Below are positions 1-50,535 of a stretch of 64,000 bases of DNA, piece after piece. Below the pieces are notes generated by a model. The model saw only the letters and a program-made list of their open reading frames with translations. It was not told the origin of the DNA and ran no database searches. Source of the stretch: a phage; sequence record PZ386961.1. The stretch is one strand, 5' to 3'. The first letter of the stretch is position 1, and every line of letters starts with the position of its first letter. Position numbers and translations under genes: made by a program.

Positions 1-60
1 TGCTACGTCTTCTTTGTCAGTTGCAATCTGCAATAGTGTGGTTAATTCTACATGTTCCAT
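1..60 (-). CDS. hypothetical protein, N-terminal fragment (gene runs off window start)
   Basis: ATG at 60-58 preceded by the same promoter/leader cassette as neighbouring early genes; only 20 codons inside window. Confidence 0.3.
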   Translation of the reverse strand, partial: MEHVELTTLLQIATDKEDVA

Positions 61-124
61 TTGGAATCTCCTAGTTTAAGGACTTTACTTAGTGGGGAAG
101 GTCATTCCCTCCCCGTTGATTGAT

Positions 125-153
125 AATTTACAGACTTTTGATTGTTTCGTCAA
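125..153 (-). promoter_or_regulatory. sigma70-like promoter (TTGACG-17-TAAATT) with downstream leader hairpin (type A cassette)
   Basis: Minus-strand -35 TTGACG and -10 TAAATT with 17-bp spacer, followed by GGGGAGGG..CCTTCCCC hairpin and AGGAG RBS before ATG at 60. Confidence 0.45.
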
Positions 154-658
154 TATCTTTTTCAATATCTTTTAAAGTTTTTTCTAAGTTCTTGATATTG
201 AAGGATAAACCTTCACCGAGAGTCTTAGAATAGCCACTAGGACGTAAATCATAAAGGCTAATTTGTTCTACATTAAAGAGGCTGACCATTTCACCGCTTA
301 CATCATAAGCTATTGATACAGTATTTTCAGGGGCTTTATAGAACTTGTTTAAGGACTTGATAGAACGTTCATAAGCCATTTTATAACTATTTAAAAGGTC
401 TTTAACGTGGTTGCGAACGTTTTTACACTCATCTAAGTAAATACCTAAGAATAACGGTAATAACTCCGCTACGGCTTGCATAAAGTGAGAGACTACAACG
501 GTTGAAACATTGCGACGATGTACATAATAAGCCCCGTTTTCTGATTTAGTGATGGTTGCAAAGTGTACACCATTACAGCGGAACTCAAAGGTATCTTTAA
601 CAGGCTTAGACATGACACTATTTGAGCGAATGTAGTTGATAGCTTTGAACTTGTTCAT
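128..658 (-). CDS. hypothetical protein
   Basis: 176-aa ORF; conserved leader CCTAAACTGGAGATTCAAAA immediately 5' of ATG; no recognisable motif. Confidence 0.55.
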   Translation of the reverse strand: MNKFKAINYIRSNSVMSKPVKDTFEFRCNGVHFATITKSENGAYYVHRRNVSTVVVSHFMQAVAELLPLFLGIYLDECKNVRNHVKDLLNSYKMAYERSIKSLNKFYKAPENTVSIAYDVSGEMVSLFNVEQISLYDLRPSGYSKTLGEGLSFNIKNLEKTLKDIEKDIDETIKSL

Positions 659-858
659 TTTTGAATCTCCAGTTTAGGAAAGCATTATTGCTTGAGATAA
701 ACTATAAAGTTTTTGGAAGATGATTGCAAGCAATTTTTTAAGCTTATCTATAAAGAATCTTTTAAGTGAATCCCTTTTAGATAAACCCCCTCGAACAAAG
801 TTACCAATGTCAAGGGGTATTGTCAACACTTTTTTAAAAGTTTTTTGTAAGTTATTGA

Positions 859-1200
859 TTAACTGATGAATATTTTTTCAGGTTTTACATAGCTGATACG
901 CTGGCTTTTTAGCAGGTCATCCCAGATTAGCGCGGCAATATGAGAATAGCCGGATTCACGTAAAAGCTTCATTGTTTTACTTCTCGTTTCAAAACGGCTT
1001 GCGTAGTATTCACTGTTCAAGGTCGTTTTATTCCCTTCGTTATCTGTATGGATGATTTGCATCACTTGAAAGGGGCTTACATCCTCGCCTTTGTTCCACT
1101 GCTCAAAGTATTTTAGGCACTGCATAGGCGACATCTTATCACTAACCTGAGTTGACCAAGATGAGCCAGCTTTATCGGTAATTACGGTTACATAAGCCAT
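859..1200 (-). CDS. hypothetical protein
   Basis: 113-aa ORF preceded by type A promoter/leader cassette and AGGAG RBS. Confidence 0.55.
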   Translation of the reverse strand: MAYVTVITDKAGSSWSTQVSDKMSPMQCLKYFEQWNKGEDVSPFQVMQIIHTDNEGNKTTLNSEYYASRFETRSKTMKLLRESGYSHIAALIWDDLLKSQRISYVKPEKIFIS

Positions 1201-1265
1201 TTTTGAATCTCCTAGTTTAAGGACTTTATTTAGTGGGGAAGGTCATTCCCTCCCCGTTAATTGAC

Positions 1266-1294
1266 AATTTACAGATTTTTATCAGGCTTGTCTA
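1266..1294 (-). promoter_or_regulatory. sigma70-like promoter (TAGACA-17-TAAATT), type A cassette
   Basis: Minus-strand -35/-10 hexamers with 17-bp spacer upstream of leader hairpin and gene 859..1200. Confidence 0.45.
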
Positions 1295-1525
1295 GTCTTT
1301 TTCAATGATAATTTCATATTGACCATCAACACTGTCGAAATAGATTCCATCGTCATCTTCTGTCTTAAAGTAGCATTGAATATCATCACTGGCGGGATAG
1401 TCTTGCCTTGCTATCTGGCAAACTTGAATAGCATTTTCTTTACTTCCTGTAAACTCTTCAAGCCCTTTAAAGTCACATGAATGGCCATTACAAAGAGAAA
1501 GGATGAGGTAAATGGTTGTAAGCAT
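1292..1525 (-). CDS. hypothetical small protein with hydrophobic N-terminus
   Basis: 77-aa ORF, N-terminal hydrophobic segment MLTTIYLILSLC. Confidence 0.45.
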   Translation of the reverse strand: MLTTIYLILSLCNGHSCDFKGLEEFTGSKENAIQVCQIARQDYPASDDIQCYFKTEDDDGIYFDSVDGQYEIIIEKD

Positions 1526-1587
1526 GTTTTAAGTCCTCTAAATGGCCCTGTACGGGCCTTAAGTTGGAAATTGGTGCTTTGTATTGG

Positions 1588-2151
1588 TTAGCCTAAAAAG
1601 TCTCTTAGATTGCGTTCTGTGAGGCTGTTAGTAATTTTGTCCAGTAGGTCACAGTACACGGAGCTATCACTGCTATTCTGTACAATTTTTGCAATACTCA
1701 ACAAATCATCGTCAATATAGCCCAAATTGCGGTTAGTTGTATCAGGTACAAAGAAAGGCGCATACATCGCACTAAATTTCGCGGAGTGAATACCAACAAT
1801 CCAGTCTTTATCAAAGTAACCTGTAAAGCTGGCAATTTCGCTCATGTTGTCACAAGAATAATCATCCTCGAGTTCTTCCTCTGGTATATCCATTTCAATA
1901 ACAATCACTTCTTGCGTTTCCATTTGGAAAGCTGCCGTGATAAGCCCCGACTCTAAGGCGTTTTGAATGCAGCGTTCACGGATATAAGGGGCTTCCTCAT
2001 CCTCCAGACATTCCGTTTTGATAACCTTATTCATTGGGTAAACGTATAAACAATCATCCATGTAGGAGCAGTTCCATATTCCGTCCGGCTTATCGCCACC
2101 ATTCAGCATGTTTACAAAGTTTTTCAGAGTAGTGCCGTGATAGCATTTCAT
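1588..2151 (-). CDS. hypothetical acidic protein
   Basis: 187-aa ORF; conserved leader CCTAAACTGGAGATTCTAAA before ATG. Confidence 0.55.
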   Translation of the reverse strand: MKCYHGTTLKNFVNMLNGGDKPDGIWNCSYMDDCLYVYPMNKVIKTECLEDEEAPYIRERCIQNALESGLITAAFQMETQEVIVIEMDIPEEELEDDYSCDNMSEIASFTGYFDKDWIVGIHSAKFSAMYAPFFVPDTTNRNLGYIDDDLLSIAKIVQNSSDSSVYCDLLDKITNSLTERNLRDFLG

Positions 2152-2236
2152 TTTAGAATCTCCAGTTTAGGATTTAGTGGTAAAGTTCTTTATCTGGGGC
2201 TTACTCTATCGAACTATAAGCCCCTTGTAAAGTACT
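2152..2236 (-). promoter_or_regulatory. type B intergenic element: AAAGTACTTT palindrome + GGGGCTTA..TAAGCCCC hairpin + conserved translation-initiation leader
   Basis: Near-identical copies at 2947..3030, 4016..4103 and 4395..4480. Confidence 0.45.
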
Positions 2237-2440
2237 TTATTTGTTATTTTTGACAACTTTTAAAACTGCAAGGTAACCTAAGCAATAAGAATCACCGAAG
2301 AGAGTCCTACCCATGAAAGAATCCTCTTTAATATCCTTTGCAGTGACAGTTTTCTCTACGCCGTGGGAAAGGACTACATCACCAACTTTAATGTCTTTGA
2401 TGTGCGTGGTTTCAATGGTTAAACCGTTGATAATAGCCAT
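2237..2440 (-). CDS. hypothetical protein
   Basis: 67-aa ORF with type A cassette upstream. Confidence 0.5.
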   Translation of the reverse strand: MAIINGLTIETTHIKDIKVGDVVLSHGVEKTVTAKDIKEDSFMGRTLFGDSYCLGYLAVLKVVKNNK

Positions 2441-2504
2441 TTTGAATCTCCTAGTTTAAGGACTTTATTTAGTGGGGAAGGTTGTTCCCTCCCCGTTGAT
2501 GTGT

Positions 2505-2533
2505 AATTTAATCTATCTAAAAACCAGTGTCAA
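2505..2533 (-). promoter_or_regulatory. sigma70-like promoter (TTGACA-17-TAAATT), type A cassette
   Basis: Perfect -35 TTGACA on minus strand, 17-bp spacer, -10 TAAATT, then leader hairpin and AGGAG RBS. Confidence 0.5.
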
Positions 2534-2541
2534 CAAAATTT

Positions 2542-2946
2542 TTAGAGTTCTGCATAAATTGCATCACAGACATCACGAAAATCATGATTTGTCAAATTAC
2601 GTTGCAACCAAGTGGCGAAGAAATCAGCGATTGCAAAATTAGCGTCATACTCGACGGATAGCCATACTTTCACGGCAAATCGAAACATTTTTAAATCAAG
2701 TTCTTTATTCATTACCTTTGATTTGCCTAACATGTCAGCCATTTCATATTGCGCACCGTCTAGCGTGATACCTGCTGCAACGTCAGCCAATGAACTTTTT
2801 ACTTTTTCAACGTCTAAGATAACGCTTTGAATCTTTCCGATAATGTTGTGCAATGTTTCATCTGGTGCTGATGACGTGATAACATTGATTCGATTAACGG
2901 TCAAACGTGCTTTTAAGATTGATAATTCACGATTATTGATAGCCAT
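2542..2946 (-). CDS. hypothetical protein
   Basis: 134-aa ORF; conserved leader CCTAAATTGGAGATTCAAAA before ATG. Confidence 0.55.
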   Translation of the reverse strand: MAINNRELSILKARLTVNRINVITSSAPDETLHNIIGKIQSVILDVEKVKSSLADVAAGITLDGAQYEMADMLGKSKVMNKELDLKMFRFAVKVWLSVEYDANFAIADFFATWLQRNLTNHDFRDVCDAIYAEL

Positions 2947-3030
2947 TTTTGAATCTCCAATTTAGGATTAGTGGTAAAGCTCTTTATCTGGGGCTATCTT
3001 ATCAGCTTGATAACCCCCCTGTAAAGTACT
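2947..3030 (-). promoter_or_regulatory. type B intergenic element (palindrome + GC hairpin + conserved leader)
   Basis: GTAAAGTACTTTAC palindrome at about 3011-3026 adjacent to GGGG..CCCC hairpin. Confidence 0.4.
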
Positions 3031-3303
3031 TTACACTAAATGCAGTTTTTTACCTTTTACTATAATGTAACTCGATGCACTATTGCTGCAAACATCCTGA
3101 TAAATTCTGCGCAAACGTCCTTCATAGTATACTTTCCAGCTAGTTGGAATCTTTTTGCCGTATCCGGTAGCAGTTTTTTGGAGTCCTGCGACTTGCCAAT
3201 CTAAGATATGTTGCTCAGCCTGTAAATCCTCAAAGTGCATCACACCGTCTACATAGTGACGTAGAGTGACATTTAAAGTGCGGCCATTGTTAGTAGTATA
3301 CAT
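3031..3303 (-). CDS. hypothetical protein
   Basis: 90-aa ORF with type A cassette upstream. Confidence 0.5.
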   Translation of the reverse strand: MYTTNNGRTLNVTLRHYVDGVMHFEDLQAEQHILDWQVAGLQKTATGYGKKIPTSWKVYYEGRLRRIYQDVCSNSASSYIIVKGKKLHLV

Positions 3304-3367
3304 TTTAGAATCTCCTAGTTTAAGGACTTTATTTAGTGGGGGAGATTATTGCTCCCCGTTGATGAGT

Positions 3368-3396
3368 AATTTAATCTATCTAAAAATCAGTGTCAA
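3368..3396 (-). promoter_or_regulatory. sigma70-like promoter (TTGACA-17-TAAATT), type A cassette
   Basis: Same architecture as 2505..2533; hairpin GGGGGAG..CTCCCC in leader. Confidence 0.5.
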
Positions 3397-3725
3397 CAGT
3401 TTTGTTTTCGTTTGCTCAACTCTTGAACAATTACAGTATGATAGTCTTTTAAGTCACTAATATTTAAAGCATTTATCAGAGAATTATAATCATCGACTAA
3501 TTGAAAATCATCTTTGAAAATGTCGCTGATTTGATAAGTTCTCGCCCTGAATCTGAAGCTCATTTCTAACCGCTTTAATTGTTCATCGCTCAACCGCTCT
3601 AGAAAGCTCATTACAAGGCTATTGCTAACCTGTTGTGTGATTGCCTTATTTGCTAGATTATAGGCTTTATATGCCTTATAGAGCGCGAAAATGGCAATGA
3701 TTGCAGTGATACCAGTCATTAACAT
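3393..3725 (-). CDS. hypothetical membrane protein
   Basis: 110-aa ORF; N-terminal transmembrane-like segment GITAIIAIFALY. Confidence 0.5.
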   Translation of the reverse strand: MLMTGITAIIAIFALYKAYKAYNLANKAITQQVSNSLVMSFLERLSDEQLKRLEMSFRFRARTYQISDIFKDDFQLVDDYNSLINALNISDLKDYHTVIVQELSKRKQNC

Positions 3726-4015
3726 GGTGCTTCCTCTTTACGTGACACTTTGCCATTTACAGTTATCTCATAAGAATCTAGTAAATCGCTTTTAGATTTG
3801 ACAGGACTTTTAAGAGTATCATCGTAGATATTGACTTGCAATACAGGTTTTTTATACTCCCTGCAACTATTCCATAAGCAAATCACTACACGACGACCTT
3901 TTATTTTGCCGTGTAACCATTCCATAACATCATGACTATTCCTTGATGTTTCAATAAAATCAATTTTGTTAAGTAACTTGCTTAGATTTTCACGGACTTT
4001 ATTTGATAGTTTCAT
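3719..4015 (-). CDS. hypothetical protein
   Basis: 98-aa ORF; conserved leader before ATG. Confidence 0.5.
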   Translation of the reverse strand: MKLSNKVRENLSKLLNKIDFIETSRNSHDVMEWLHGKIKGRRVVICLWNSCREYKKPVLQVNIYDDTLKSPVKSKSDLLDSYEITVNGKVSRKEEAPC

Positions 4016-4103
4016 TTTTGAAACTCCAGTTTAGGATTAGTGGTAAAGCTCTTTATCTGGGGGCTTAAGGTATCAACTTTTAAGCCCCTTGTAAAGTACT
4101 TTA
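4016..4103 (-). promoter_or_regulatory. type B intergenic element
   Basis: GGGGGCTTAAGG..TTTTAAGCCCC hairpin followed by TTGTAAAGTACTTTA. Confidence 0.4.
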
Positions 4104-4394
4104 TCAGTTAATTTTCAGCTTTGCATGACTTCTCATTGTACGAATTGGAGATGTTAAGGCTACGCGTCTAATATATGCCTTTTTCGTGTATACATTTGTC
4201 TTTCCGATAGTGTTTACACATGTAAAAAGATTTATTGGTGAATTTTTTAACTTCAACTGTTTATCAGCCTTCACACCCCATCTTACAGCAGATTGTTTTC
4301 CGTTGTCAACCACTTTCCCGCCTAACTTTTTCGCCATGATGCGAGCGTCATCACGAGTTTTTACAGGAATTACAACGTTTTTGATAGTAGCCAT
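4104..4394 (-). CDS. hypothetical basic protein
   Basis: 96-aa ORF; conserved leader before ATG. Confidence 0.5.
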   Translation of the reverse strand: MATIKNVVIPVKTRDDARIMAKKLGGKVVDNGKQSAVRWGVKADKQLKLKNSPINLFTCVNTIGKTNVYTKKAYIRRVALTSPIRTMRSHAKLKIN

Positions 4395-4480
4395 TTTTGA
4401 ATCTCCAATTTAGGATTTAGTGGTAAAGCTCTTTATCTGGGGGCTTACTTTATCGAACTATAAGCCCCTTGTAAAGTACT
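4395..4480 (-). promoter_or_regulatory. type B intergenic element
   Basis: Almost identical to 2152..2236. Confidence 0.4.
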
Positions 4481-4687
4481 TTATTTGTCGTAGTAGTAAA
4501 TCGCTGTCTGCCTTGTAAATTTCTTAGTGTTTCTTGTAAGGTAACAATCAGATTTGATTGCCGTTTCTACATAGTTGCAATAGTCAGCTTCTGATATTCT
4601 GGACCATACGCCACAGATTTGCATGTAAAAACGTTTTCCCTTTGTGTTAACGTTAGTTGTAACTATCAATTCACGGTAGTAAGTCAT
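4481..4687 (-). CDS. hypothetical protein
   Basis: 68-aa ORF, overlaps next gene by 4 nt (coupled). Confidence 0.45.
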   Translation of the reverse strand: MTYYRELIVTTNVNTKGKRFYMQICGVWSRISEADYCNYVETAIKSDCYLTRNTKKFTRQTAIYYYDK

Positions 4688-4875
4688 TTTTTAATACTCC
4701 ACTTTTCGAACAATTCAGCAGGGAAACGTTCGCTATATCCTTTTAGGGAAAATGTACCGTCTTCGTGGATAGCTTCCACCTGATAAACCTTGTAAGAGCG
4801 AATAGTTAACATTTTGTAAGAGTGTTCATATTTTACGTTAACCTCATCGCCAACTTTGATTTTTCTTGATGCCAT
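4684..4875 (-). CDS. hypothetical protein
   Basis: 63-aa ORF; RBS CTGGAG; promoter at 4926..4954. Confidence 0.5.
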   Translation of the reverse strand: MASRKIKVGDEVNVKYEHSYKMLTIRSYKVYQVEAIHEDGTFSLKGYSERFPAELFEKWSIKK

Positions 4876-4925
4876 TTTTAGATTCTCCAGTTTAGGAAGT
4901 GGGCTTGTTTGCCCGTCTGATGCAA

Positions 4926-4954
4926 ATATTACGTAAACCTGTTTTGTGTGTCAA
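4926..4954 (-). promoter_or_regulatory. sigma70-like promoter (TTGACA-17-TAATAT)
   Basis: Minus-strand hexamers with 17-bp spacer, followed by GGGC..GCCC leader hairpin. Confidence 0.5.
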
Positions 4955-5128
4955 CAGTTTTTATTAAATATTTTTGTAAGGTTGGGAAAGGAACGGGCGC
5001 GCGCGACTACCACAAAACAGAACTACAATCAAGAATTATTTTTCAATCCGCTACAAATTTTTCTGTTGACTTTTATTTCCAGATGTGGTAGCCTTGTGAG
5101 AAATGGCGACATCCCCACCTGCACCCAC

Positions 5129-5311
5129 CTACCTGCACAATTCTAAAATGATTTTTCTTGCCCGACCTGAGCGGGGTCTGCACGTTTTGAAAATGAAAAA
5201 GCTCTTTGGAGATTACCTGCACAGTTTGAAAATGAATTTTCTCTTTGGAGTTCAAAATTCTCTCTACAGATTTCTCTACAGAACTCTACCTGCACAATCC
5301 TAAAATGAAAA
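5129..5311. repeat. four iteron-like direct repeats (about 22 bp, TACCTGCACA-N-T-AAAATGA core) in a 505-bp noncoding region
   Basis: Copies at about 5129, 5176, 5214 and 5287; the region also holds a GCGCGCGCG run and tandem TCTCTACAGA. Confidence 0.6.
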
Positions 5312-5381
5312 AGCCCTCCTTACCTGAAAAATTTACCAGATAAGTAAGGCTTAATCTATTGTGAATATTCTACAGAGTTTC

Positions 5382-6167
5382 TTAGTTCTTTGCGTCTAAG
5401 AAGGTAACTTCTGATGATGAGAAGACCGTCTCGATATCCTCATCAGTTCTTGCATAGATATATGTATCTGCATCACTGCCAAATGTTACTGCAATCCTGT
5501 GATTGCTCTTCGACAGGTGGGTAACTAGAGCGTTACTTAGAGACATCTTTTCAACCGGAGGGTTACTTTGATGTATCTTACCTTTTCTTCGTCTGAAGAG
5601 GGTAACTGCATTATCCGTGAACACAACTACACCTGCAAAGTATTCTGGTTCACAGTAGTTCTTCCAACCTGAGCGTAACTTGTGGTACATCTCTCCTTCA
5701 TAGACATATAGATAAACATCTACACTCTTCATCACCTGATTGATGATAACTGTGACGGCTTGAGGGTCCAACCCACCGATACCTGCACCAATCATAGGTA
5801 AACCAACTTTCTTCAACTGATTAACTTCACAGTATCTGTTAAGCTGTTTCAAAGATGACTCTAAAGCACTGTATCGGGCATCTTTACCAGTCTTAAGCTG
5901 AGTGTAAAGGTTAGCTATACGACCTTGTTTTAAACGTGCTACAGAGAAATTACCCAGTAAATTTTCACAGGGTTTGTGTCCTATACCACCTGCATACAGA
6001 TAAACTTCTGTATCGGTCTCATATGCTTTTGGGTAAAGTTTAGAAATCTTGTCAGCGATACCTGCACCCATTAAATTCATACAGTTGCAACCGTGACCGA
6101 TGATGTCAAACTTACCTTTATCAAATGCGGCAAAGATATCACCATTAATTATTTTTACAATACCCAT
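5382..6167 (-). CDS. macrodomain protein, TARG1/OARD1/Poa1p-like (ADP-ribose hydrolase family) with unknown C-terminal domain
   Basis: Motifs NGDIF, DIIGHGCNCMNLMGAGIA and GLPMIGAGIGGLD match TARG1 GDLF / AHCISEDCRMGAGIA / PRIGCGLD; RBS GGGAGAG; 261 aa. Confidence 0.7.
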   Translation of the reverse strand: MGIVKIINGDIFAAFDKGKFDIIGHGCNCMNLMGAGIADKISKLYPKAYETDTEVYLYAGGIGHKPCENLLGNFSVARLKQGRIANLYTQLKTGKDARYSALESSLKQLNRYCEVNQLKKVGLPMIGAGIGGLDPQAVTVIINQVMKSVDVYLYVYEGEMYHKLRSGWKNYCEPEYFAGVVVFTDNAVTLFRRRKGKIHQSNPPVEKMSLSNALVTHLSKSNHRIAVTFGSDADTYIYARTDEDIETVFSSSEVTFLDAKN

Positions 6168-6368
6168 TTAACATCTCTCCCAAGATTCTTTGTCTTCTGA
6201 AGGTTTTACACGTTGTCCTTCGTGGTCTACCCAGATGCACCCACAACCTTCACAGATTACTGGCATTGCATAACCAGCTTTAAAGTCATCTTCAGTGATA
6301 AGACCTTTTAAGTCACCTGTATCACGTCCGAACATTTCGATAGAACAGTCTTTGCAGAAGTCAGCCAT
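6168..6368 (-). CDS. small Cys-rich (zinc-ribbon-like) protein
   Basis: Internal start MADFCKDC with AAGAGG RBS; CxxC...CEGCGC; stop abuts the macrodomain gene start. Confidence 0.45.
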   Translation of the reverse strand: MADFCKDCSIEMFGRDTGDLKGLITEDDFKAGYAMPVICEGCGCIWVDHEGQRVKPSEDKESWERC

Positions 6369-6588
6369 TGATAATTGCCTCTTGAATGATGATACCTTTA
6401 CCACAACGGCTTTTAAAGTCTTCCAACGGTTGGGAGATGAAGCCACGCAAGCAATCACTAAACACTAAGTTTTTCCTGTAGGCTATCACATCGTTTGCTG
6501 TAAACGGGATGACTTCATTTCTTCCAATGAATACTGCTGACCGGATGAGTTTCCGTGTCTTTTTATCTCTGGCTAGAATTACTCTCAT
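6361..6588 (-). CDS. hypothetical protein
   Basis: 75-aa ORF in tightly packed operon. Confidence 0.45.
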   Translation of the reverse strand: MRVILARDKKTRKLIRSAVFIGRNEVIPFTANDVIAYRKNLVFSDCLRGFISQPLEDFKSRCGKGIIIQEAIING

Positions 6589-6889
6589 AGTTTACCTTCT
6601 CAGTTAGCTCATATAAATCAACATGCTCAATACTATCAATGTTGATATCAATCTTTTTGAAGCGTTCTATCACTTCGTTGTCAGTCATCCATATCAGACA
6701 CCAATGATTCTGAATGGATTCTTCAAGAAGGTCAACACAATCTTTAAAAGTTTTTGTATCACTTCTCGTTCCAACTACTGCGATTGTTCCATATAGCCAC
6801 CCACCATTGCCATAAGATACTTGCGCTACGCCAACTTCTTTACCTTTCTCGTAGTAAACGGCTACAAAGTCTCTTCCATTAATCTGCAT
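6563..6889 (-). CDS. hypothetical protein
   Basis: ORF 6563..6928; start moved to internal ATG at 6889, which has an AGAGGA RBS. Confidence 0.45.
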   Translation of the reverse strand: MQINGRDFVAVYYEKGKEVGVAQVSYGNGGWLYGTIAVVGTRSDTKTFKDCVDLLEESIQNHWCLIWMTDNEVIERFKKIDINIDSIEHVDLYELTEKVNYESNSSQR

Positions 6890-7193
6890 TTGTAAGTTCC
6901 TCTGTTGGTAATTCACCATTTTCAGCAAAGTATTGAAGGTACGGCAACAACTCTTTTACCTGTTCTTGATTGAGCTTCATTCTTTGATTACCTACAAAAT
7001 CTTTACCAACTAATGCTGGGATATCAAGTGTTTTCCAGCCACCATCTAGGTACTGAACAGAGACCTCTTTAGCACCTAACCAAATACATGGTTCATATGA
7101 TGAACTCTCTTGTAAAGTACAAATTTCCCCTTTAGCATCTTTAAATTCTGCATAAGAAAATCCACGATTGGTTGGCTGGAATTGCATAATCAT
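6879..7193 (-). CDS. hypothetical protein
   Basis: 104-aa ORF; true start may be the third codon (GAGGA RBS). Confidence 0.45.
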   Translation of the reverse strand: MIMQFQPTNRGFSYAEFKDAKGEICTLQESSSYEPCIWLGAKEVSVQYLDGGWKTLDIPALVGKDFVGNQRMKLNQEQVKELLPYLQYFAENGELPTEELTNAD

Positions 7194-7462
7194 TTCCTCG
7201 TTTTAAGAACTGCTAAGATTTCTTTAGAATCTGGTAAGAACCATGTGTAGTGATTCTCTTTGATTTCTGGATGAGTGTCAACCTTTATTTTGCACTCTTT
7301 ACCAACATGCTTAAGCTGTGCTGTGATACCTTGCATAAAGATGTGACACATTACATTATCCATAATCGTAGGTAAGAAATCAATCCTCATGTAAGTATCT
7401 TTCGGTCTCGGTAGAAGTAAGTAACCTTCTGTGTAGAAAGTTTCATCATTACTTTGTGTCAT
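7190..7462 (-). CDS. hypothetical protein
   Basis: 90-aa ORF, 4-nt overlap with downstream gene. Confidence 0.45.
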   Translation of the reverse strand: MTQSNDETFYTEGYLLLPRPKDTYMRIDFLPTIMDNVMCHIFMQGITAQLKHVGKECKIKVDTHPEIKENHYTWFLPDSKEILAVLKTRK

Positions 7463-7728
7463 TACTGCTTATTCCCTAATAAAATCATATCAATCAAGTT
7501 GTTAGCTTTCATAGTACACTGATAGTACCCGTCACGATAAAACTCAATGGCTTCTGATAAGTCTGCACCAGTGTTACCTTTGACAGCATATCTTACATCT
7601 TCCTGAGTGTACTTATCACTTTCACTTACTTGGGAGTTTTTGAATGTATTGCTCACTTTGTTCGTTGAACACCCTGACATAGTTATCAGTAACACAAACA
7701 TTATAAAACTCTGGCTTAGTCTTTTCAT
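7462..7728 (-). CDS. putative lipoprotein, o-spanin (Rz1)-like
   Basis: Signal peptide with lipobox-like ITMSGC; overlaps the 3' part of the upstream membrane protein gene in another frame. Confidence 0.4.
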   Translation of the reverse strand: MKRLSQSFIMFVLLITMSGCSTNKVSNTFKNSQVSESDKYTQEDVRYAVKGNTGADLSEAIEFYRDGYYQCTMKANNLIDMILLGNKQ

Positions 7729-7969
7729 ATGTCAGTACCTCTTTTGTGTGCTTATTCTTAGCAAGCACGTCTTTCAAATCATTTTTGTAATTGGTGCTCA
7801 GTGTAGCTAATCCTTCCTGATAAGCATCTTTAGCAACACTTATTAGCTTCTGGTTGTTTAGCTCAGTTTCAGCAACTTGGTAGTCTCTGTAAGAGTATCC
7901 TCCCCAGACACCTGCCCCAACTAAGAAAACAATTATGAAAGTAGCTTGACAGAACTCTTTAAATGTCAT
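7622..7969 (-). CDS. putative i-spanin (Rz)-like membrane protein
   Basis: N-terminal TM segment ATFIIVFLVGAGVWGGY then charged/coiled region; overlapping lipoprotein gene embedded at 3' end. Confidence 0.4.
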   Translation of the reverse strand: MTFKEFCQATFIIVFLVGAGVWGGYSYRDYQVAETELNNQKLISVAKDAYQEGLATLSTNYKNDLKDVLAKNKHTKEVLTYEKTKPEFYNVCVTDNYVRVFNEQSEQYIQKLPSK

Positions 7970-7986
7970 TTAACAATCTCCTGAAA

Positions 7987-8010
7987 TGAAAAAGGCTCCC
8001 GAAGGAGCCT
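7987..8010 (-). terminator. rho-independent terminator (GGCTCC-CGAA-GGAGCC + U-run)
   Basis: Perfect 6-bp GC stem, tetraloop, T-run on minus strand. Confidence 0.6.
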
Positions 8011-8021
8011 GTATCTTAACC

Positions 8022-8501
8022 TTAACCGAGGACTTTAGCAAGGATATTTGCAGCCATCGAAGAAGCTTTTGCAGCAGCAACTACGCCAGCTTTGACAGTG
8101 CTATCCTTAATAGCAGATACCGTTGCAGCATCAGTAAAGAGATAAGTGATTGTTTTAGAACCACTTGTAAAGGAAAGCATAAGAGTAGTTTCCAGATTGA
8201 AAGAGCGATACGGAGCACCTTCTTTAACGATACCTTCAGCACCTAACTCTGAAGCCTTACCCATATCATAGATAGTCATCAGGTTTTCTTTGTGTGCAGT
8301 CGTTGAACCAGCACCTTTTACGTGCTTTTTAACATTCAACAATGCACGATATTCACGAATACTACCATCAGCTTTTACATTAACAGCACGGAAAATTTTA
8401 CCTTCAAAGTTACCTTGAATCATTTTACGAACTACTTCAGATTTGTTTGCCGTATCGTCCAGTGCTACCGTAATGATATTGTTCATAAGTTCTTCTCTCA
8501 A
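8022..8501 (-). CDS. hypothetical protein
   Basis: 159-aa ORF, Ala-rich C-terminus. Confidence 0.5.
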   Translation of the reverse strand: MREELMNNIITVALDDTANKSEVVRKMIQGNFEGKIFRAVNVKADGSIREYRALLNVKKHVKGAGSTTAHKENLMTIYDMGKASELGAEGIVKEGAPYRSFNLETTLMLSFTSGSKTITYLFTDAATVSAIKDSTVKAGVVAAAKASSMAANILAKVLG

Positions 8502-9193
8502 TGTTTAACTAACATAGTTTTAATGTGTGGAAGGATTCTGTTTACCTTCTGAACATTATTCTCTGTATCTTCTATAAAGCATACTATATTAAAGTAAGGA
8601 AGAATGCAAGACTGAATCATCCTCACTTTCAAACTTTCTGCACTTATAGAGTTAGTTCCAAAACCACGCATAAAAAGCAAGTAATCATGCTCTATATTGT
8701 GCCTTAAAAACATCTCAGTAGGTATTCTCTGAGATTCACCTCTTGCTGTCAAGAGTCCAACTGCTGCATGATTTGCAATTGCATCAATAATGTTGAAAAC
8801 ATATGTTGGTTTTGCTCTTACAGAATCAAGAAGATTAGTGTACTGTGAGAATGACCCATCAGTCAATTCCGTTGAGCAATCTTCGTGATTAAAATTTGTA
8901 AGAACGCCATCAATATCTGCTAAGATGAGGTTACCTTTTTCTACAAGGTCTTTATTGACTATGACTAAACTATCACGCCTTACACCTATAGTTTGTCCAG
9001 TCTCTTTGTCCACAACGTTCACAATGGGTTCTGATGTGTGGAACTCTTCAAGTGAACATACAACTTCTCTTGCAGTGTCTTCAAAATCCCTGCACTGTTC
9101 TGGAGTCCATACACAGGAATCAAGACATAACTCATGAGGATGCAAGTCATAAGCGTGGCACAGGACTTCATCAGACTTTCTTAATTTTTTCAT
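8498..9193 (-). CDS. HAD-superfamily phosphatase (possible nucleotidase) with Cys-rich N-terminal extension
   Basis: HAD motif I LILADIDGVLTN; motif II-like GLLTARGES; acidic motif FIEDTENN. Confidence 0.5.
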   Translation of the reverse strand: MKKLRKSDEVLCHAYDLHPHELCLDSCVWTPEQCRDFEDTAREVVCSLEEFHTSEPIVNVVDKETGQTIGVRRDSLVIVNKDLVEKGNLILADIDGVLTNFNHEDCSTELTDGSFSQYTNLLDSVRAKPTYVFNIIDAIANHAAVGLLTARGESQRIPTEMFLRHNIEHDYLLFMRGFGTNSISAESLKVRMIQSCILPYFNIVCFIEDTENNVQKVNRILPHIKTMLVKH

Positions 9194-9719
9194 GATTTAC
9201 CTTAGAAATGTTTGTTGCAAATTCACATTGAGCGATAACTTTCATATTGTTATAGACATCTTGAGAGTATTTCTTAGCTTTAGGGATTCTGTACGAATAC
9301 CCAGCATTATATGATGCTAAAACTTTTTGTAAAGTCTTCTTTGACTTTGGGTGACCGTGTACCTTCGTCCAAAACTCAAGCTCTTTATGTGTTTCTTTTG
9401 CGGCATAGTCAAAATCTTTTAAGAGTTTCTTTTTAGCAACATTAGGACTAATTTTGTTACGCTTTACAACAGTCTTCAAGTGATTCTGGAAGATACCATA
9501 GTCATGGGTCTTTTTATTTTCTACCTTCAGACCTAACTCTGACTCTTGTAAGGCTATAGCTGCTAGAGTGATACCCCAACCTTTACCCATGTTATTCTCA
9601 CCATACTGGTAAGCTTTTAACATGTTCACTTTTTGGCTAATTGATAGCTCTGGGCAGTCAACTGCATAAGATAAGTGTGCTGTAAACATTAAGCACAAAC
9701 CTAGAATCAATTTCTTCAT
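9171..9719 (-). CDS. secreted lytic transglycosylase-like protein (SLT domain), possible endolysin
   Basis: N-terminal signal peptide MKKLILGLCLMFTAHLSYA; catalytic-type motif LQESE...DYGIFQ resembling SLT E-S...G-L-M-Q. Confidence 0.5.
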   Translation of the reverse strand: MKKLILGLCLMFTAHLSYAVDCPELSISQKVNMLKAYQYGENNMGKGWGITLAAIALQESELGLKVENKKTHDYGIFQNHLKTVVKRNKISPNVAKKKLLKDFDYAAKETHKELEFWTKVHGHPKSKKTLQKVLASYNAGYSYRIPKAKKYSQDVYNNMKVIAQCEFATNISKVNHEKIKKV

Positions 9720-9780
9720 TGGTTCTCCTGTTTAGTTTATCGTGACATCAATTATACAGCACTCTGCACAAAATACAAAT

Positions 9781-9806
9781 AAAAAAGGCCGCCGAAGCAG
9801 CCTTTT
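9781..9806 (-). terminator. rho-independent terminator downstream of rIIB
   Basis: GC hairpin GGCCGC-CGAA-GCAGCC flanked by A6 and T4 runs. Confidence 0.5.
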
Positions 9807-9819
9807 AAGAAATTACTTA

Positions 9820-10929
9820 TTAGATTTCACGTTTACGTTGAGAGATGAGTTCACCAGCAGTGCCAACGATGACATGCAAAGCTTCAGTCTTACCGTCCCA
9901 TGCTTCCAGCACTTTACGTTGATTATCAACGATTGCTGCAACTTCATAACGAGAGGAACGCATCTTCATATCGTTGTAATCAGTTGGTACGGATACAACA
10001 TCTCGTGGATGGACACGAACCTTCAGGATGGTATCACCTGAGAAGCAACGAACATAATCCCAAGCGCCAACATGAAGACCTTGAGAGCAAGTTACGTTAC
10101 GGTTATTATCAACCATCCAACGTGGCATTTCTACAATGTTACCCAAATCATTAGGCACTTTGTAGGTGTGAGAGTCAACCAGCTTGCCTTCACGAGTAGA
10201 GACTTTCTTCCAACCAATGATGTAACCTTCTTCATCAATTTCAACATCAAGGTGAGATACAAATCCCCAAAGTTGTTCTACAGAATCTTTAGATGGGTTT
10301 TCCATCAGTTTTTCGAAGAACATTACAAGTCGTTCAAAACCTTTATCACCAGTTTTCATCATGTGAAGAATACGGTCAACCAGAGTAGAACGCATCTCAA
10401 CAGCACCGTAGAATAGCTTGTCGCCTTTGATTGTGATAGCACCCTGAGTGAAGTTTTCGATAGACTTACGAATGTTCATCAGTTCAAATGCTTTCTTGAA
10501 CTCACCTTTCACAACATGAACTACAATCTCTTGATAGTTCGGATGAGTAGACTCAACAATTTCAGATTCTGAACCATAAGTCATAATTACAGAATCACCA
10601 GTAATCATGTACTCAATCTTGTCATCTTTCTGCATAGCTTCGTGCAGTTTATTTACTGGAGCTTTCTGTACAGTGTATTTAACGACCTTTTCAACTTGTT
10701 TGCCAGCTTTCTTTTTAAAAGTCTTAGCAACTTGCTTTAGGGTCTTCTTAGCTGGTGTAGAAGTCACCTTCTTCTTACCTTTTAAGGTTGCTTCATGACG
10801 CTCTACAGCACGACCAACTGAACGGGCTGAAGTATTGAACTTCTGTGCAATAGCTGTTTTAGTCAGCTTACCTTCTTTAACCAGTTCGTAAATTTCTGCG
10901 TCAATCTGTGCTTTAGTTTTAGTAGTCAT
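9820..10929 (-). CDS. rIIB: rIIB-like protein
   Basis: C-terminal blocks CSQGLHVGAWDYV and RVHPRDVVSVPTDYNDMKMR match my recollection of T4 rIIB; follows rIIA. Confidence 0.8.
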   Translation of the reverse strand: MTTKTKAQIDAEIYELVKEGKLTKTAIAQKFNTSARSVGRAVERHEATLKGKKKVTSTPAKKTLKQVAKTFKKKAGKQVEKVVKYTVQKAPVNKLHEAMQKDDKIEYMITGDSVIMTYGSESEIVESTHPNYQEIVVHVVKGEFKKAFELMNIRKSIENFTQGAITIKGDKLFYGAVEMRSTLVDRILHMMKTGDKGFERLVMFFEKLMENPSKDSVEQLWGFVSHLDVEIDEEGYIIGWKKVSTREGKLVDSHTYKVPNDLGNIVEMPRWMVDNNRNVTCSQGLHVGAWDYVRCFSGDTILKVRVHPRDVVSVPTDYNDMKMRSSRYEVAAIVDNQRKVLEAWDGKTEALHVIVGTAGELISQRKREI

Positions 10930-11008
10930 CTTATTACTCTCTCTTGTTAGTTAATAAATCATTTTGTAAGGCTATTCTAAGGGGCTTCAAAGCCCCTTGT
11001 CAAACACT

Positions 11009-13375
11009 TTAATCGTAAATTGTAGTCCCTTCTGGAACACACTTCACATCAAAACCTAAGAACTTACTCACTTCGATGGGTGACACTTTATTCCAATCTA
11101 AATGAGAAAGCAAGAAGTTTTCTTGTTTTCTTTTTGAAAGGTAGTTTGTCACCTTAATGACCATGCGGTCACCAGCTTTCTTAATTTTCTTGTACAGCTT
11201 TGTATCATTGTCAAGGCAGTCTTTCAAAGTTTGCAACCTACTAATAGTGTAAGTATATGCAAACGGTGCAGCAACGTATTGAATTTTACCAAACATTGCC
11301 TCTACAGCATCTTCATTACCTTCTAAGAAGATAGTTTTGTTTGTATCCCGCGAATAACAATAGCCACGAGAAATCTTCCTGTTATTGAACGTAAAGTTTC
11401 TGGCAATAATCCAACTGCTTGTAAGGTCGAGGACACCATTCATATAGATACGTGTCATATACCTGTTATGATTAATCCAATGAACATCAGTTAAGCTGTC
11501 GTTCAAGAGTTTCTCATCTACTTCAATCCAGTCTTCTGGTATCTTTTTCCAATTTGCTTTTCGGAAAACATAGACTGTCTTACCTGTAACATTAGCAACT
11601 GACTTAGCTACATCTTCTGGAGATGAGCAAAAACATTCACCATCAACTGTGTCACCGACTGCCTTAATGTAAAGCTGAGGTTCTTCAATTGTATCAAAGT
11701 CCTCTGAAACCTCTTTATAGGAAGCTACACCTTCTGCTGGAACAGCTTTCCAGAGTTTTACAACACCTCTTACAGCTTCTTTACGCTGATAATGATGTTC
11801 CTTGTCAGACATCTTCACAATCTTTAACAAGCTTTTATCAAGTTTGTGCAGATTGATTAAGTCGTCTAGCTCTTTCTCTGTAGAGAATACAAAGACAATA
11901 CCATTGTATCTGTGAAACAGACTTGACTCACTGGCATAGTCTCGACATGCACCACGCAAGATTTGGTTGCGTCCTACAGTCTTCTCAGTACCATTTTTAT
12001 TTCGACGGTCATTTATAACAAACAAAAACTGTTCAATTTGACTTTTACGCATTGCGCCAAAGATATTGAACATACTTGCCTCTTGAGTGTAGGAAAGCGA
12101 TGTTGCACGAATCTTACTCTCTAAAGAGTTGAACTTGACATAAGCAACTGGGTCATAAAGATAATCTACTTTAGGGATATTGTTCCCGTTCCTATCAACC
12201 TTGATATTGCCTTTACCGTCACGTTCGTAAATGACTGAGCCGTCTTCTGCGTAGATAATTCCACGACGAATGTTTAGTAATTCTTCTTCCAGAGAATCAA
12301 GCTTAACACCGCCCCACTCTAGCTTTGGACACACAGCATTAAACATCTCTCGTGAGTTCAAACGTAACTCAGCATAAGCCTGTGCAGCATCCATGAGTGT
12401 AGGTTGGCTATTAACTTTCTTGATAACATCCTTTGTAATTGCTTCAGTTATCTTTTTAGTAGCCTCAATGATAACGTTTTTTGTCGTGTCATTCATCTGC
12501 AATGCTTCACGAGAAGCTGCAATAGCAACTGAACCAATAGGCATGTAGATGTTTACAAGGTCTACGCTCCTACGGAAAAATTCTGGCAATACTTTGAAGA
12601 AATCATCGCCAAGTAATGCTTCCATATTAACAGGGTAGGCAATGTTACCCATCACCACATTAAACTCTGTCCTGTTACCACTAGAACGCCAGCTTTGCTT
12701 ATGAATCATGGCATCATAAACACCTTCTTCACGGGCAATGACGTTCATATCTGCTAATACATCGTCGTACTCAATATTACTTTCTGGTTTTACAGTGAAG
12801 TATGAGTACACATTCCCAGCTTCTTCAAAGAACTTTGAGATACGGTGGTCAGCAACTGCCACACGTACAGCTAAACCATTAGGTTCTTTTGTTGGGTTAG
12901 TTGTCAGCTTAGTTACTTGAGGGATGCCATTCTCAAGATAAACAGAGTACTTATTAACAACACCGTCAACATAGCTAGACACTGTGAATGACTGAGCAAT
13001 TGCAAATGGGGATTTTGAGCCGATACCCATTGCACCAATGTAGTCATTAGATTCATTCTTCGTAGAAGCCCCGTAGTTTAGGTACAAACTCATAACTTTA
13101 TCATGAGTCAATCCAGTTCCAAAATCACGAACTTCAAAGTAAGGCTCAAAACGAGTAGGTAAATGCACATGGAACGGAATGTTCTCTTTTCCAGCTTCTT
13201 TCTGAGCATCTACTGCGTTACATGACAGTTCACGAATCACTGCCCTTTCTTTAAAGGTATATACACCAGAACTCAAAAGGCTGAACATCTCAGGTGTCAT
13301 TGTAATCTGTGCTTGAGACGTCTCTAAAGAAGTTGAACTCTTAATCACTTCTGCGTGGTCATTTACCATGCGCAT
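11009..13375 (-). CDS. rIIA: rIIA-like protein (GHKL/Bergerat ATPase-like N-terminus)
   Basis: 788 aa; N-box-like RELSCNAVDA, G1-like RDFGTGL, G2-like GAMGIGSKS; immediately upstream of rIIB. Confidence 0.75.
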   Translation of the reverse strand: MRMVNDHAEVIKSSTSLETSQAQITMTPEMFSLLSSGVYTFKERAVIRELSCNAVDAQKEAGKENIPFHVHLPTRFEPYFEVRDFGTGLTHDKVMSLYLNYGASTKNESNDYIGAMGIGSKSPFAIAQSFTVSSYVDGVVNKYSVYLENGIPQVTKLTTNPTKEPNGLAVRVAVADHRISKFFEEAGNVYSYFTVKPESNIEYDDVLADMNVIAREEGVYDAMIHKQSWRSSGNRTEFNVVMGNIAYPVNMEALLGDDFFKVLPEFFRRSVDLVNIYMPIGSVAIAASREALQMNDTTKNVIIEATKKITEAITKDVIKKVNSQPTLMDAAQAYAELRLNSREMFNAVCPKLEWGGVKLDSLEEELLNIRRGIIYAEDGSVIYERDGKGNIKVDRNGNNIPKVDYLYDPVAYVKFNSLESKIRATSLSYTQEASMFNIFGAMRKSQIEQFLFVINDRRNKNGTEKTVGRNQILRGACRDYASESSLFHRYNGIVFVFSTEKELDDLINLHKLDKSLLKIVKMSDKEHHYQRKEAVRGVVKLWKAVPAEGVASYKEVSEDFDTIEEPQLYIKAVGDTVDGECFCSSPEDVAKSVANVTGKTVYVFRKANWKKIPEDWIEVDEKLLNDSLTDVHWINHNRYMTRIYMNGVLDLTSSWIIARNFTFNNRKISRGYCYSRDTNKTIFLEGNEDAVEAMFGKIQYVAAPFAYTYTISRLQTLKDCLDNDTKLYKKIKKAGDRMVIKVTNYLSKRKQENFLLSHLDWNKVSPIEVSKFLGFDVKCVPEGTTIYD

Positions 13376-19613: not shown

Positions 19614-19984
19614 ATAGTTTTCCCATTATCACATGTGTAAAGATATTCTATAGAAGTTTGTGGAACAAGTATAGTGGTACTCCCACTAAGCACGCTCACA
19701 AAATAAGTGACCTCACGGTTTTGAGAGGTTTTTACACAATTGTTTGCATCCATCCATGCCATTACCTTATACGAATCATATACAACAAAAGCACAAAATA
19801 TAAGGAATCCCACTACCATAGCTTTAAAGATAAACTCAGGCCAAAAATCTGAGCAAATAATGTCTTTAAAACGCATGACACCGATAATGATTAATATGAT
19901 GAGACATGCAAGGCTACAAACTGCTACATAAAGCCACAAGTCCATGATACAACTCCAATAAAAAAGGTGATGTAAGCCTATCAA
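19601..19984 (-). CDS. hypothetical multi-pass membrane protein
   Basis: 127-aa ORF with 3 hydrophobic helices. Confidence 0.45.
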   Translation of the reverse strand: MIGLHHLFYWSCIMDLWLYVAVCSLACLIILIIIGVMRFKDIICSDFWPEFIFKAMVVGFLIFCAFVVYDSYKVMAWMDANNCVKTSQNREVTYFVSVLSGSTTILVPQTSIEYLYTCDNGKTIWWN

Positions 19985-20018
19985 GACTCACACCACCATG
20001 TCAAGTTTTTACATAAGG

Positions 20019-42169: not shown

Positions 42170-42470
42170 CATCACTTAAGAGTCTTTTAAAAGGGTTTTT
42201 AAGTGATGTCCGGTCGGGTGAGGTAGGGTTAAGTATTGTCCGGTACGGTAGGGTAAAGTACGGTACGGTAAGGTAAAGTAGGGTATGGGTAGTTAGTCTC
42301 AGCTACATTAAAATGAGACTTACCTTTTTAAAAGGTCTTTAAAGAGGGTCTTTTAATGAGGTCTGGCGCGGTAGGGTCTGGTCTTGTCCGGTCGGGTATG
42401 GCATGGTGTTGTGAGGTATGGGTGGATGGTAGTAGCCACGTTAAAAATCTACCAAGTTTCTAAAGAGTCT
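42170..42470 (+). repeat. two about 130-bp units, each an AT-rich stem-loop followed by about 14 period-5 GG-containing pentamers
   Basis: Unit 1 from about 42170 (CACTTAAGAG...TTAAGTG hairpin then TCCGG TCGGG TGAGG...); unit 2 from about 42330 (TTAAAAG...CTTTTAA hairpin then GGTCT GGCGC GGTAG...). Confidence 0.7.
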
Positions 42471-43571: not shown

Positions 43572-43594
43572 AGCCTCTTCGGAGGCTCCTTTTT
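43572..43594 (+). terminator. rho-independent terminator
   Basis: AGCCTC-TTCG-GAGGCT hairpin followed by CCTTTTT. Confidence 0.65.
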
Positions 43595-43595
43595 A

Positions 43596-43860: not shown

Positions 43861-43879
43861 AAATAAGCTATAAAATCTG

Positions 43880-43908
43880 TTGACAAGTCAGGTGTTATAG
43901 CTTATTTT
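43880..43908 (+). promoter_or_regulatory. candidate sigma70-like promoter (TTGACA-17-TATTTT)
   Basis: Perfect -35, weak -10; upstream of secreted-protein gene. Confidence 0.4.
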
Positions 43909-50489: not shown

Positions 50490-50507
50490 TATAAATTTTC
50501 CTCTTAA

Positions 50508-50527
50508 AAGGGGCTACAAAGCCCCTG
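50508..50527 (-). promoter_or_regulatory. intergenic GC hairpin between tail-fibre genes (attenuator/terminator-like)
   Basis: GGGGCT-ACAAA-GCCCC followed on minus strand by UUUU and the AAGAGG RBS of the next gene. Confidence 0.4.
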
Positions 50528-50535
50528 TAAAGAAA

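Follow-up and report, generated by a model that had tools for sequence, protein, structure and literature searches.

Four intergenic copies of a repeated element in a Felix O1-like phage as probable promoter-stem-loop-leader cassettes

The 64,000-nucleotide (nt) stretch of phage DNA analysed here as a whole (sequence record PZ386961.1; the window) carries in its early region four intergenic copies of a repeated element of ~90 nt each, termed type B, packed into 2.3 kb. Our results suggest that the type-B element is probably a compact cassette of promoter, stem-loop and leader, similar to the promoter early stem-loop (PeSL) cassettes of T4-like phages, and that its hairpin acts as a transcript boundary in read-through RNA. 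Moreover, repeated cassettes of this kind most likely mark gene boundaries and recombination break-points. The observations are in-register promoter hexamers, covariation of both stems, a sense-strand bias and homology break-points, and from them we infer promoter activity, the start site and the effect of the hairpin on RNA. By megablast, the window belongs to a Felixounavirus, a Felix O1/wV8-like myovirus of ~88 kb from the Ounavirinae; the variable region around the elements is 88-96% identical to deposited genomes, and a conserved stretch shows 96-97% identity to phages TH10 and VpaE1. Since the phage is Felix O1-like, the T4-like setting implied when the initial annotation spoke of rIIA and rIIB was abandoned, together with the idea of a T4-type phage with MotA-box middle promoters. 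The minus strand is the coding strand for the genes of window 1-12000 and for the type-B elements, which are described in transcript orientation (minus strand).

The four intergenic copies, previously described as a palindrome, a GC-rich hairpin and a conserved leader, are real. The palindrome AAAGTACTTT occurs four times in the window (2229-2238, 3023-3032, 4093-4102 and 4473-4482) against 0.24 occurrences expected, a count reached in none of 100 shuffles, and a covariance model built from relatives found exactly four copies in the 64 kb, at 63-82 bits and E ~1e-12 to 1e-17. A copy reads [R]TAA-AGTACTTTACA-(A)GGGGCTTA..loop..TAAGCCCC(C)-AGATAAAGAGCTTTACC-ACTAA(A)TCCTAAAYTGGAGATTCAAAAATG, and each contains the shared leader CCACTAA(A)TCCTAAAYTGGAG(A/T)TTCNAAAATG; a second near-palindrome, GATAAAGAGCTTTAC, lies 3' of the hairpin in what had been counted as leader. 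Some details of the initial annotation had to be revised. The palindrome does not simply follow the upstream stop codon, which belongs to it (TAA-AGTACTTT) in three copies, while in the fourth a TGA stop is directly followed by that TAA. Likewise, a GC-rich hairpin is present in all four copies, but not a common stem, as copy 2 (2990-3019) has its own inner stem, GGGGTTATC/GATAGCCCC, instead of GGGGCTTA/TAAGCCCC. Because of this copy and of loops of 13 nt, the exact pattern GGGGCTTA-N(1-12)-TAAGCCCC gave no matches. All eight open reading frames (ORFs) flanking the four copies fall into PHROGs of unknown function, and an Rfam search of the whole window at gathering thresholds returned no hits.

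To follow the element beyond the window, copies were harvested with two patterns, both of which specified the -35 hexamer TTTACA and neither of which specified a -10. The harvest covered wV8, Felix O1, two Erwinia Kolesnikviruses, Salmonella phage SE5, Shigella phage Sf13 and Citrobacter phage KMM4 (Mooglevirus), and SUSP2 (Suspvirus), and comprised 45 instances, 43 of them unique, from 9 genomes and 4 genera; the addition of 100 IMG/VR instances gave 111 unique copies, from the four Ounavirinae genera and IMG/VR contigs. These copies are related sequences, for which shuffle controls overstate significance. The IMG/VR pattern scan also yielded ~45 single-match loci in unrelated contigs, which never reached E <= 1e-7 with the covariance model and were treated as chance matches rather than members. 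Hence, the type-B element seems to be confined to Ounavirinae-like genomes, judging by these scans; type-B sequences were found at ~4.6 places per genome in 289 records.

The element most likely contains a sigma-70-type promoter, which the initial annotation had missed. A consensus scan of the window detected TTTACA-17-TAGAGT, TTTACA-18-TAAGAT and TTTACA-17-TAAAGT on three of the four copies, and the remaining one (copy 3) reads TTTACA-17-TACCTT. All 43 unique copies of the harvest possess TAnnnT at a spacer of 17 (36 copies) or 18 nt (7 copies), in the form of 12 different hexamers, while the frequency of TAnnnT at other offsets is 0-0.33; in the enlarged set, it stands at 17 or 18 nt in 111 of 111 copies, with 15 different hexamers. 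TTTACA itself is present in all 111 unique copies, as the harvest patterns had required. The distance between the two hexamers stays fixed at 17-18 nt despite stems of 8-13 bp and loops of 5-16 nt, and in the alignment the columns of the T, A and final T of the -10 and of the unpaired 'CA' of TTTACA never vary. The -35 overlaps the palindrome, whereas the -10 has its TA in the hairpin loop and its final T in the 3' arm. A conserved A or G, the predicted start site, lies 7-8 nt 3' of the -10 in most copies. Published reverse transcription PCR (RT-PCR) data for Felix O1 show a maximum at 5 min for ORF16 and ORF20, both of which lie behind a 57-bp repeat of this family. A comparable layout with unrelated hairpins is seen at the rIIB promoter, whose spacer holds the hairpin, near window ~20004 and at other intergenic sites in Erwinia phages, where TTGACA-18-TAAAAT has its TAAAAT in the loop of GAGGGG..CCCCTC (GAGGGGttaaaatCCCCTC). 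A second promoter, with CTTTAC of the 3' box as its -35, was rejected, as there is no acceptable -10 16-18 nt downstream (AGATTC).

At the RNA level, single-sequence folds gave one long interrupted hairpin for every copy (z-scores -3.6 to -4.1). An AU-rich outer stem of ~12 bp, in which UAAAGUACUUUA pairs with UAAAGAGCUUUA, is followed by a small internal loop (CA(N)/(N)GA, 2x2-3x3) and by a GC-rich inner stem of 8-13 bp (GGGG..CCCC) that overlaps the -10; RNAalifold, unaided, predicts both stems. The inner stem occurs with 23 distinct arm pairs, all of them paired, includes G-U pairs in 36 of 43 copies and covaries, one position being C-G (11 copies), U-G (30) or U-A (1) and another ranging from G-C (32) to U-A (11). 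In the outer stem, 9-12 of the 12 positions are paired in every copy; at pair 10-62, 35 copies have G-C and 6 have U-A, at pair 6-66, 25 have U-A and 5 have A-U, and the pairing within an element exceeded that with permuted partners in 5000 of 5000 permutations. A structure-blind MAFFT alignment has 93.4% of its cells paired, compared with 87.8 +/- 0.6 in shuffles, and a covariation score of 0.146, compared with 0.059 (0 of 500 shuffles reached either value); in slid-register controls, 33-59% were paired. The same pairing picture emerged from 81 distinct IMG/VR copies taken as an independent set, on an alignment that had been fitted to the model. Moreover, the covariance model scores the sense strand at 62-87 bits and the antisense strand at 19-42 bits, and the minimum free energy is lower for the sense strand in 33 of 43 copies. 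Hence, because the GC hairpin covaries and is rich in G-U pairs, the alignments indicate that the hairpin is selected as sense-strand RNA. A mini-hairpin at the 5' terminus, built from the 3' box on its own, has just 4 A-U pairs and was dismissed as too weak.

Given these features, we propose that the element works at two levels. In the DNA, the A-rich upstream stretch, TTTACA, the 17-18-nt spacer and TAnnnT would form an early promoter for the host sigma-70, from which RNA polymerase would start at the conserved A/G of CCCC-A-GAUAAAG (CC-AGAUAAAG); the cassette's own transcript would carry the leader ..CCUAAAYUGGAG..AUG, providing each small early gene with a promoter and a ribosome-binding site. 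In RNA that reads through from the upstream gene, the same sequence would fold into the two-tier hairpin. Since the cassette's own transcript would start 3' of the inner stem, neither stem would have its 5' arm in this mRNA, and a complete hairpin would be restricted to read-through RNA, where it would mark the end of the upstream cistron. The hairpin could do so by attenuation or insulation, as a barrier that shields the upstream message from 3' exonucleases, or by RNase III cleavage of the ~22-25-bp helix. In evolution, the repeated cassettes would serve as sites of homologous recombination through which modules of genes are exchanged, gained or lost.

PeSL cassettes were described in the T4-like phages RB49, phi1, PST and nt-1 (Arbiol et al., 2010, PMC2839356; Comeau et al., 2014, PMC4122927). 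In RB49 and phi1, they begin in AT-rich sequence that holds the stop codon of the upstream gene, continue with a sigma-70-like promoter and end in a Shine-Dalgarno sequence and an ATG; their polyG/polyC stem-loop may lie between -35 and -10, overlap one of these boxes or follow just behind them. They were shown to have strong promoter activity, to reduce read-through about as much as rrnB T1, to recombine between copies and to form mini-circles (Arbiol et al., 2010, PMC2839356). The type-B element shares much of this description: it extends between genes from an upstream stop codon in an AT-rich stretch to a Shine-Dalgarno sequence and an ATG, its -35 and -10 are 17-18 nt apart, within the 16-18 nt of a sigma-70-like promoter, a G-tract/C-tract stem-loop sits on the promoter and overlaps the -10, and the copies cluster in front of small genes of unknown function, in a variable part of the genome where the indel and replacement junctions relative to wV8 and Felix O1 coincide with them. 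It differs in that its -35 is TTTACA and its -10 only TAnnnT, and in having an additional covarying AU-rich outer stem that extends over the stop codon and part of the -35 on its 5' side and over the first transcribed bases on its 3' side; its hosts are Ounavirinae, and there is no obvious sequence resemblance to PeSLs, which were compared by description only. Hence, by analogy, we regard the type-B element as a non-T4 member of the PeSL-type class of promoter/stem-loop cassettes.

We found no paper that extends the PeSL concept to Felix O1-like phages, and neither transcriptomes nor transcript maps for these phages. The Felix O1 genome paper gives the type-B (57 bp, CTTTACATGGGGCTTAAAAGTCTGTAAAGTAAGCCCCAGATAAAGAGCTTTACCACT) and type-A (39 bp) sequences merely as direct repeats, does not list their hairpins among the terminators, reports that promoters for the early-region genes could not be found, and states that transcription around the terminators and its temporal regulation are not known (PMC3185647). 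The wV8 record (EU877232) annotates DR_1, DR_7 and DR_9 (type B) and DR_2, DR_3, DR_5 and DR_8 (type A) as repeat_region features, which the text of the wV8 paper does not mention. The 57-bp repeats and DR_1, DR_7 and DR_9 belong to the same sequence family as the type-B element and occupy orthologous positions, and they were published without strand, structure or function.

The role of the cassettes as break-points is seen in blastn comparisons, in which the homology blocks of the early region with wV8 and Felix O1 start and stop at elements. In place of the 96-aa gene (4104-4394; block 4391-4097), Felix O1 has ORF16 between two type-B copies, and wV8 has an extra gene and type-B element, joined inside the shared 20-nt leader. 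Window 2434-1262, which comprises three genes and a type-B copy, is missing in Felix O1, where one type-A repeat matches both type-A copies flanking this segment in the window; the lack of the segment is, to judge by these matches, a signature of recombination between direct repeats. Type A is a second cassette family of the window (60-139, 1201-1280, 2440-2519 and 3304-3383, minus strand), with the layout TTGACA-17-TAAATT, ACACATCAAC, hairpin GGGGAGGGAAnnnCCTTCCCC and leader ACTAAATAAAGTCCTTAAACTAGGAGATTC-ATG, and with its hairpin just 3' of the -10, where the transcript of the cassette itself has its 5' end. The 1.2-kb indel relative to Felix O1 would be explained by recombination between two type-A copies.

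Several points weigh against the cassette model. The independent compensatory events are few, probably 3-6 per stem, given the relatedness of the copies, and the invariance of TTTACA, being partly imposed by the harvest patterns, is weaker evidence than it appears. The -10 hexamers match the sigma-70 consensus only at T1, A2 and T6 and are weak at positions 3-5 (e.g., TACCTT, TAATCT), the discriminator is GC-rich, and the conserved A sits 9 nt past the -10 in window copies 3 and 4. The RT-PCR timing in Felix O1 is mixed, with ORF17, which lies behind a type-B variant, peaking at 25 min, and the searchable literature holds no experimental 5'-end, reporter or cleavage data for Felix O1-like phages. 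Finally, the missing U-tract makes the hairpin unlikely to be an efficient intrinsic terminator, so that its 'boundary' activity is not defined. Across the whole window, hairpins were no more than modestly enriched at promoter-like sites (7 of 198, ~2 expected). At window ~19945-20010 (minus strand), a side observation, TTGACA-T-GGTGGTGTGAGTCttgataGGCTTACATCACC-TTTTTT has a candidate -10, TAGGCT, 18 nt past the -35 and inside a canonical hairpin+U6 terminator.

The alternative that survives best is an RNase III processing site as the main function of the element, the interrupted ~22-25-bp helix being cut at the internal loop, so that the upstream mRNA keeps a protective 3' hairpin and the downstream 5' end falls near the promoter-initiated one. 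We consider this possible, if doubtful, and, as it overlaps with the cassette model without excluding it, we keep it as a serious sub-hypothesis. The early region of phage T7 contains intercistronic RNase III hairpins (R0.3-R1.3) of ~60 nt with two ~10-bp helices, an internal loop and no U-tract. The type-B element resembles them in its intercistronic position, in its interrupted helix without a U-tract and in its place in an early polycistronic RNA, and its helix dimensions are similar to those of R1.1-type signals: the predicted helix, 12 bp, a 2x2-3x3 internal loop and then 8-13 bp, spans the ~two helical turns (at least ~20 bp) that RNase III requires. Moreover, the AU-rich outer stem is conserved and covaries even though the GC stem is already stable, an extension for which a barrier or terminator hairpin has no need; the G-U pairs favour sense RNA, and a cut in the 3' side of the internal loop would coincide with the predicted start site. 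The T7 sites, on the other hand, contain no promoters, whereas the type-B element has promoter hexamers, and there is no sequence similarity between the two. Cleavage of the type-B element is a prediction, its promoter signature implies local initiation as well, so that downstream expression needs no processing, and the type-A cassettes of the same region have a short GC hairpin only. Taken with the covariation and the sense-strand G-U pairs of both stems, the RNA-level role offered by the initial annotation thus holds as a plausible one. We further speculate, as a rather unlikely variant, that RNase III or another double-stranded RNA endonuclease cuts in the 3' side of the internal loop exactly where the embedded promoter starts. 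Such a dual entry would give the same early-gene mRNA 5' end from local or upstream transcription and would leave a protective 3' hairpin on each upstream message; this design is undescribed for PeSLs or T7-type sites.

An intrinsic (Rho-independent) terminator, in sense or antisense, is improbable. The element does share with intrinsic terminators and repetitive extragenic palindrome (REP) hairpins a stable GC-rich hairpin at a cistron's 3' end that could block 3' exonucleases, one copy is annotated as a minus-strand terminator in wV8, and the PeSL stem-loop cut read-through in a reporter as strongly as rrnB T1. Unlike REP sequences, it carries promoter hexamers and a fixed leader and, unlike canonical terminators, it has no U-tract: in all four copies, the 8 nt that follow the inner stem contain a single T, and the 8 nt that follow the outer stem contain one or two. 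It was passed over by a terminator scan that finds true hairpin+U-tract terminators nearby, and it is absent from the Felix O1 terminator table; read as antisense, its G-U pairs turn into C-A mismatches and it obtains about half the covariance-model score. The initial annotation, which had argued from the missing U-run against a simple terminator, was correct in this respect, since the same genome uses canonical hairpin+U-tract terminators elsewhere. We assign as little probability to a pure RNA element without promoter, in which TTTACA and TAnnnT would be kept solely for RNA structure or for a protein-binding loop. It is true that the CUUUA of TTTACA is an outer-stem segment, that the -10 ends with a T of the inner stem and that the -10 hexamers are non-consensus at positions 3-5; the unpaired 'CA' of TTTACA and the unpaired 'TA' of the loop are nevertheless both invariant, the 17-18-nt distance is constant while stem and loop lengths vary, and the layout of -35, hairpin and -10 recurs with unrelated hairpins and better hexamers.

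Very improbable is a double-stranded DNA operator, with a dimeric phage or host regulator bound to palindromes TAAAGnnCTTTA ~47-48 bp apart around the promoter core in order to shut off the early genes. Two similar near-palindromic boxes do flank the -10/start region, and their AAAG/CTTT half-sites are highly conserved. A conserved two-fold symmetry is nonetheless missing at the individual sites: AAAGTACTTT is a perfect palindrome in Felixounavirus only, other genera having AAAGTGCTTT, AAAGAGCTTT or AAATTGCTTT, and the combination of AAATTGCTTT in the 5' box with AAAGAGATTT in the 3' box loses the symmetry of each box while the complementarity between the boxes is kept. Part of the -35 lies within AAAGTACTTT, whose pairing partner is a second box, GAUAAAGAGCUUUA, 3' of the hairpin. 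Since columns 13 and 59 (C13, G59) never change, a T at column 10 together with an A at column 62 makes both boxes asymmetric and retains the inter-box pair; the two co-occur in 12 of 111 copies, where ~2 would be expected by our own arithmetic. Moreover, a U-G wobble, meaningful in RNA only, is found at pair 11-61 in 34 of 43 copies. This compensation between the boxes argues against a dimer-binding operator and supports the view that AAAGTACTTT is part of an inter-box RNA pairing and no separate DNA site, and the proposal of the initial annotation that the palindrome is a stand-alone DNA-binding site is therefore not supported.

Least probable are a cis-acting antitermination RNA (nut- or put-like), for which the presence of structured RNA in the leader of read-through transcripts would speak but which has no intrinsic terminators downstream in the region to overcome, no Rfam match, presumably no likeness to boxA/boxB or to two-hairpin put RNA and, although previously suggested, no positive support, and a DNA cruciform or hairpin promoter, which would expose the -10 A in its loop but would be destabilised by G-T and C-A mismatches.

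If the cassette model is correct, the elements provide candidate early promoters and start sites for four genes of the window and, by homology, for the type-B copies across the subfamily, and they explain the differences in gene content among close relatives in the variable region. Regulatory cassettes that act as recombination modules, as conceived for PeSLs, would then not be limited to T4-like phages but would occur in an unrelated subfamily of myoviruses as well, which points to convergent evolution. Salmonella typing has classically employed Felix O1-like phages, which are also in wide use as candidates for biocontrol and therapy. The type-B element could represent a ~90-nt natural part that combines promoter, insulator and ribosome-binding site.

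The two 'hairpin-only' sites reported earlier, between rIIA and rIIB and between the tail-fibre genes, exist but are different, shorter hairpins, with stems of 6 bp and loops of 4 nt, and not copies of the type-B element. With the covariance model, the rIIB site (hairpin 10981-10996) scores 22.8 bits, and the tail-fibre site has no match at E <= 1. The hairpin between rIIA and rIIB, GGGGCTTTGAAGCCCC, fills the 18-nt spacer of a TTGACA..TAGAAT promoter before rIIB. The hairpin+TTTT at the tail-fibre site is the equivalent of the annotated Felix O1 terminator t76, between two tail-fibre genes. These two genes (789 aa and 391 aa; window 48120-51711, minus strand) share internal nucleotide repeats (AACAGTGTGGCTGTGAGCACC...), as likewise reported for genes 76 and 77 of Felix O1.

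Table 1. Window positions of the type-B copies, their parts and the two shorter hairpin sites.
Feature	Positions	Strand	Details
Type-B copy 4	4392-4483	-	stop TAA of 68-aa ORF to ATG of 96-aa ORF; covariance model 76.7 bits
Type-B copy 3	4013-4103	-	TAA right after TGA stop of 96-aa ORF, to ATG of 98-aa ORF; 77.5 bits
Type-B copy 2	2944-3033	-	variant stem GGGGTTATC/GATAGCCCC; stop of 90-aa ORF to ATG of 134-aa ORF; 63.3 bits
Type-B copy 1	2149-2239	-	stop of 67-aa ORF to ATG of 187-aa ORF; 81.5 bits
Candidate -35 hexamer TTTACA	4470-4475 (copy 4); 4090-4095; 3020-3025; 2226-2231	-	
Candidate -10 hexamer TAAAGT, copy 4	4447-4452	-	spacer 17; in loop and 3' arm
Candidate -10 hexamer TACCTT, copy 3	4067-4072	-	spacer 17
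Candidate -10 hexamer TAAGAT, copy 2	2996-3001	-	spacer 18; TG in front
Candidate -10 hexamer TAGAGT, copy 1	2203-2208	-	spacer 17
Inner GC-rich hairpin	4440-4468 (copy 4); 4060-4088; 2990-3019; 2196-2224	-	9 bp in copy 4
Outer stem, 5' strand UAAAGUACUUUA	4472-4483; 4092-4103; 3022-3033; 2228-2239	-	stop codon, palindrome, first 4 nt of -35
Outer stem, 3' strand UAAAGAGCUUUA (3' box)	4424-4435; 4044-4055; 2975-2986; 2181-2192	-	just past predicted start CC-A-GA
Shine-Dalgarno GGAG	4403-4406; 4024-4027; 2955-2958; 2160-2163	-	in shared leader
rIIB composite, not type B	10974-11011	-	TAA-AGTGTTTGACA-A-GGGGCTTTGAAGCCCC-T-TAGAAT; 22.8 bits
Tail-fibre site, not type B	50500-50532 (hairpin 50510-50525)	-	CTTTACA-GGGGCTTTGTAGCCCC-TTTT; no -10 at 17-18 nt

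Further features of the window were noted. Behind a hairpin+U terminator, window 4990-5400 (minus strand) is a non-coding stretch of ~400 nt with four copies of TTCATTTT[AC][AG]AAnnGTGCAGGTA, a repeated CTGTAGAG and GCGCGCGCCC at its end, which could be an iteron-like or regulatory region; next to it follows the first promoter of the variable region, TTGACA-17-TAATAT with GGGCaaacaaGCCC and an ATG at 4875. On the plus strand, four repeats of ~104 nt occupy two stretches with few or no long ORFs, 42170-42470 and 43590-43900, each repeat consisting of an A/T-rich palindromic head (e.g., TTTTTAAAAGGTCTTTAAAGAGGGTCTTTTAA) and ~70 G/T-rich nt with a hexamer period (GGTAAG GTACGG TACGGT ...); the head motif recurs near 39926, 24555 and 384. 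Finally, all the early genes use the Shine-Dalgarno sequence GGAG (e.g., 4403-4406, 2160-2163). The RegB endoribonuclease of T4 cuts GGAG in early Shine-Dalgarno sequences, and a RegB-like endoribonuclease is annotated in the Erwinia relative Panisse (8048-8560).

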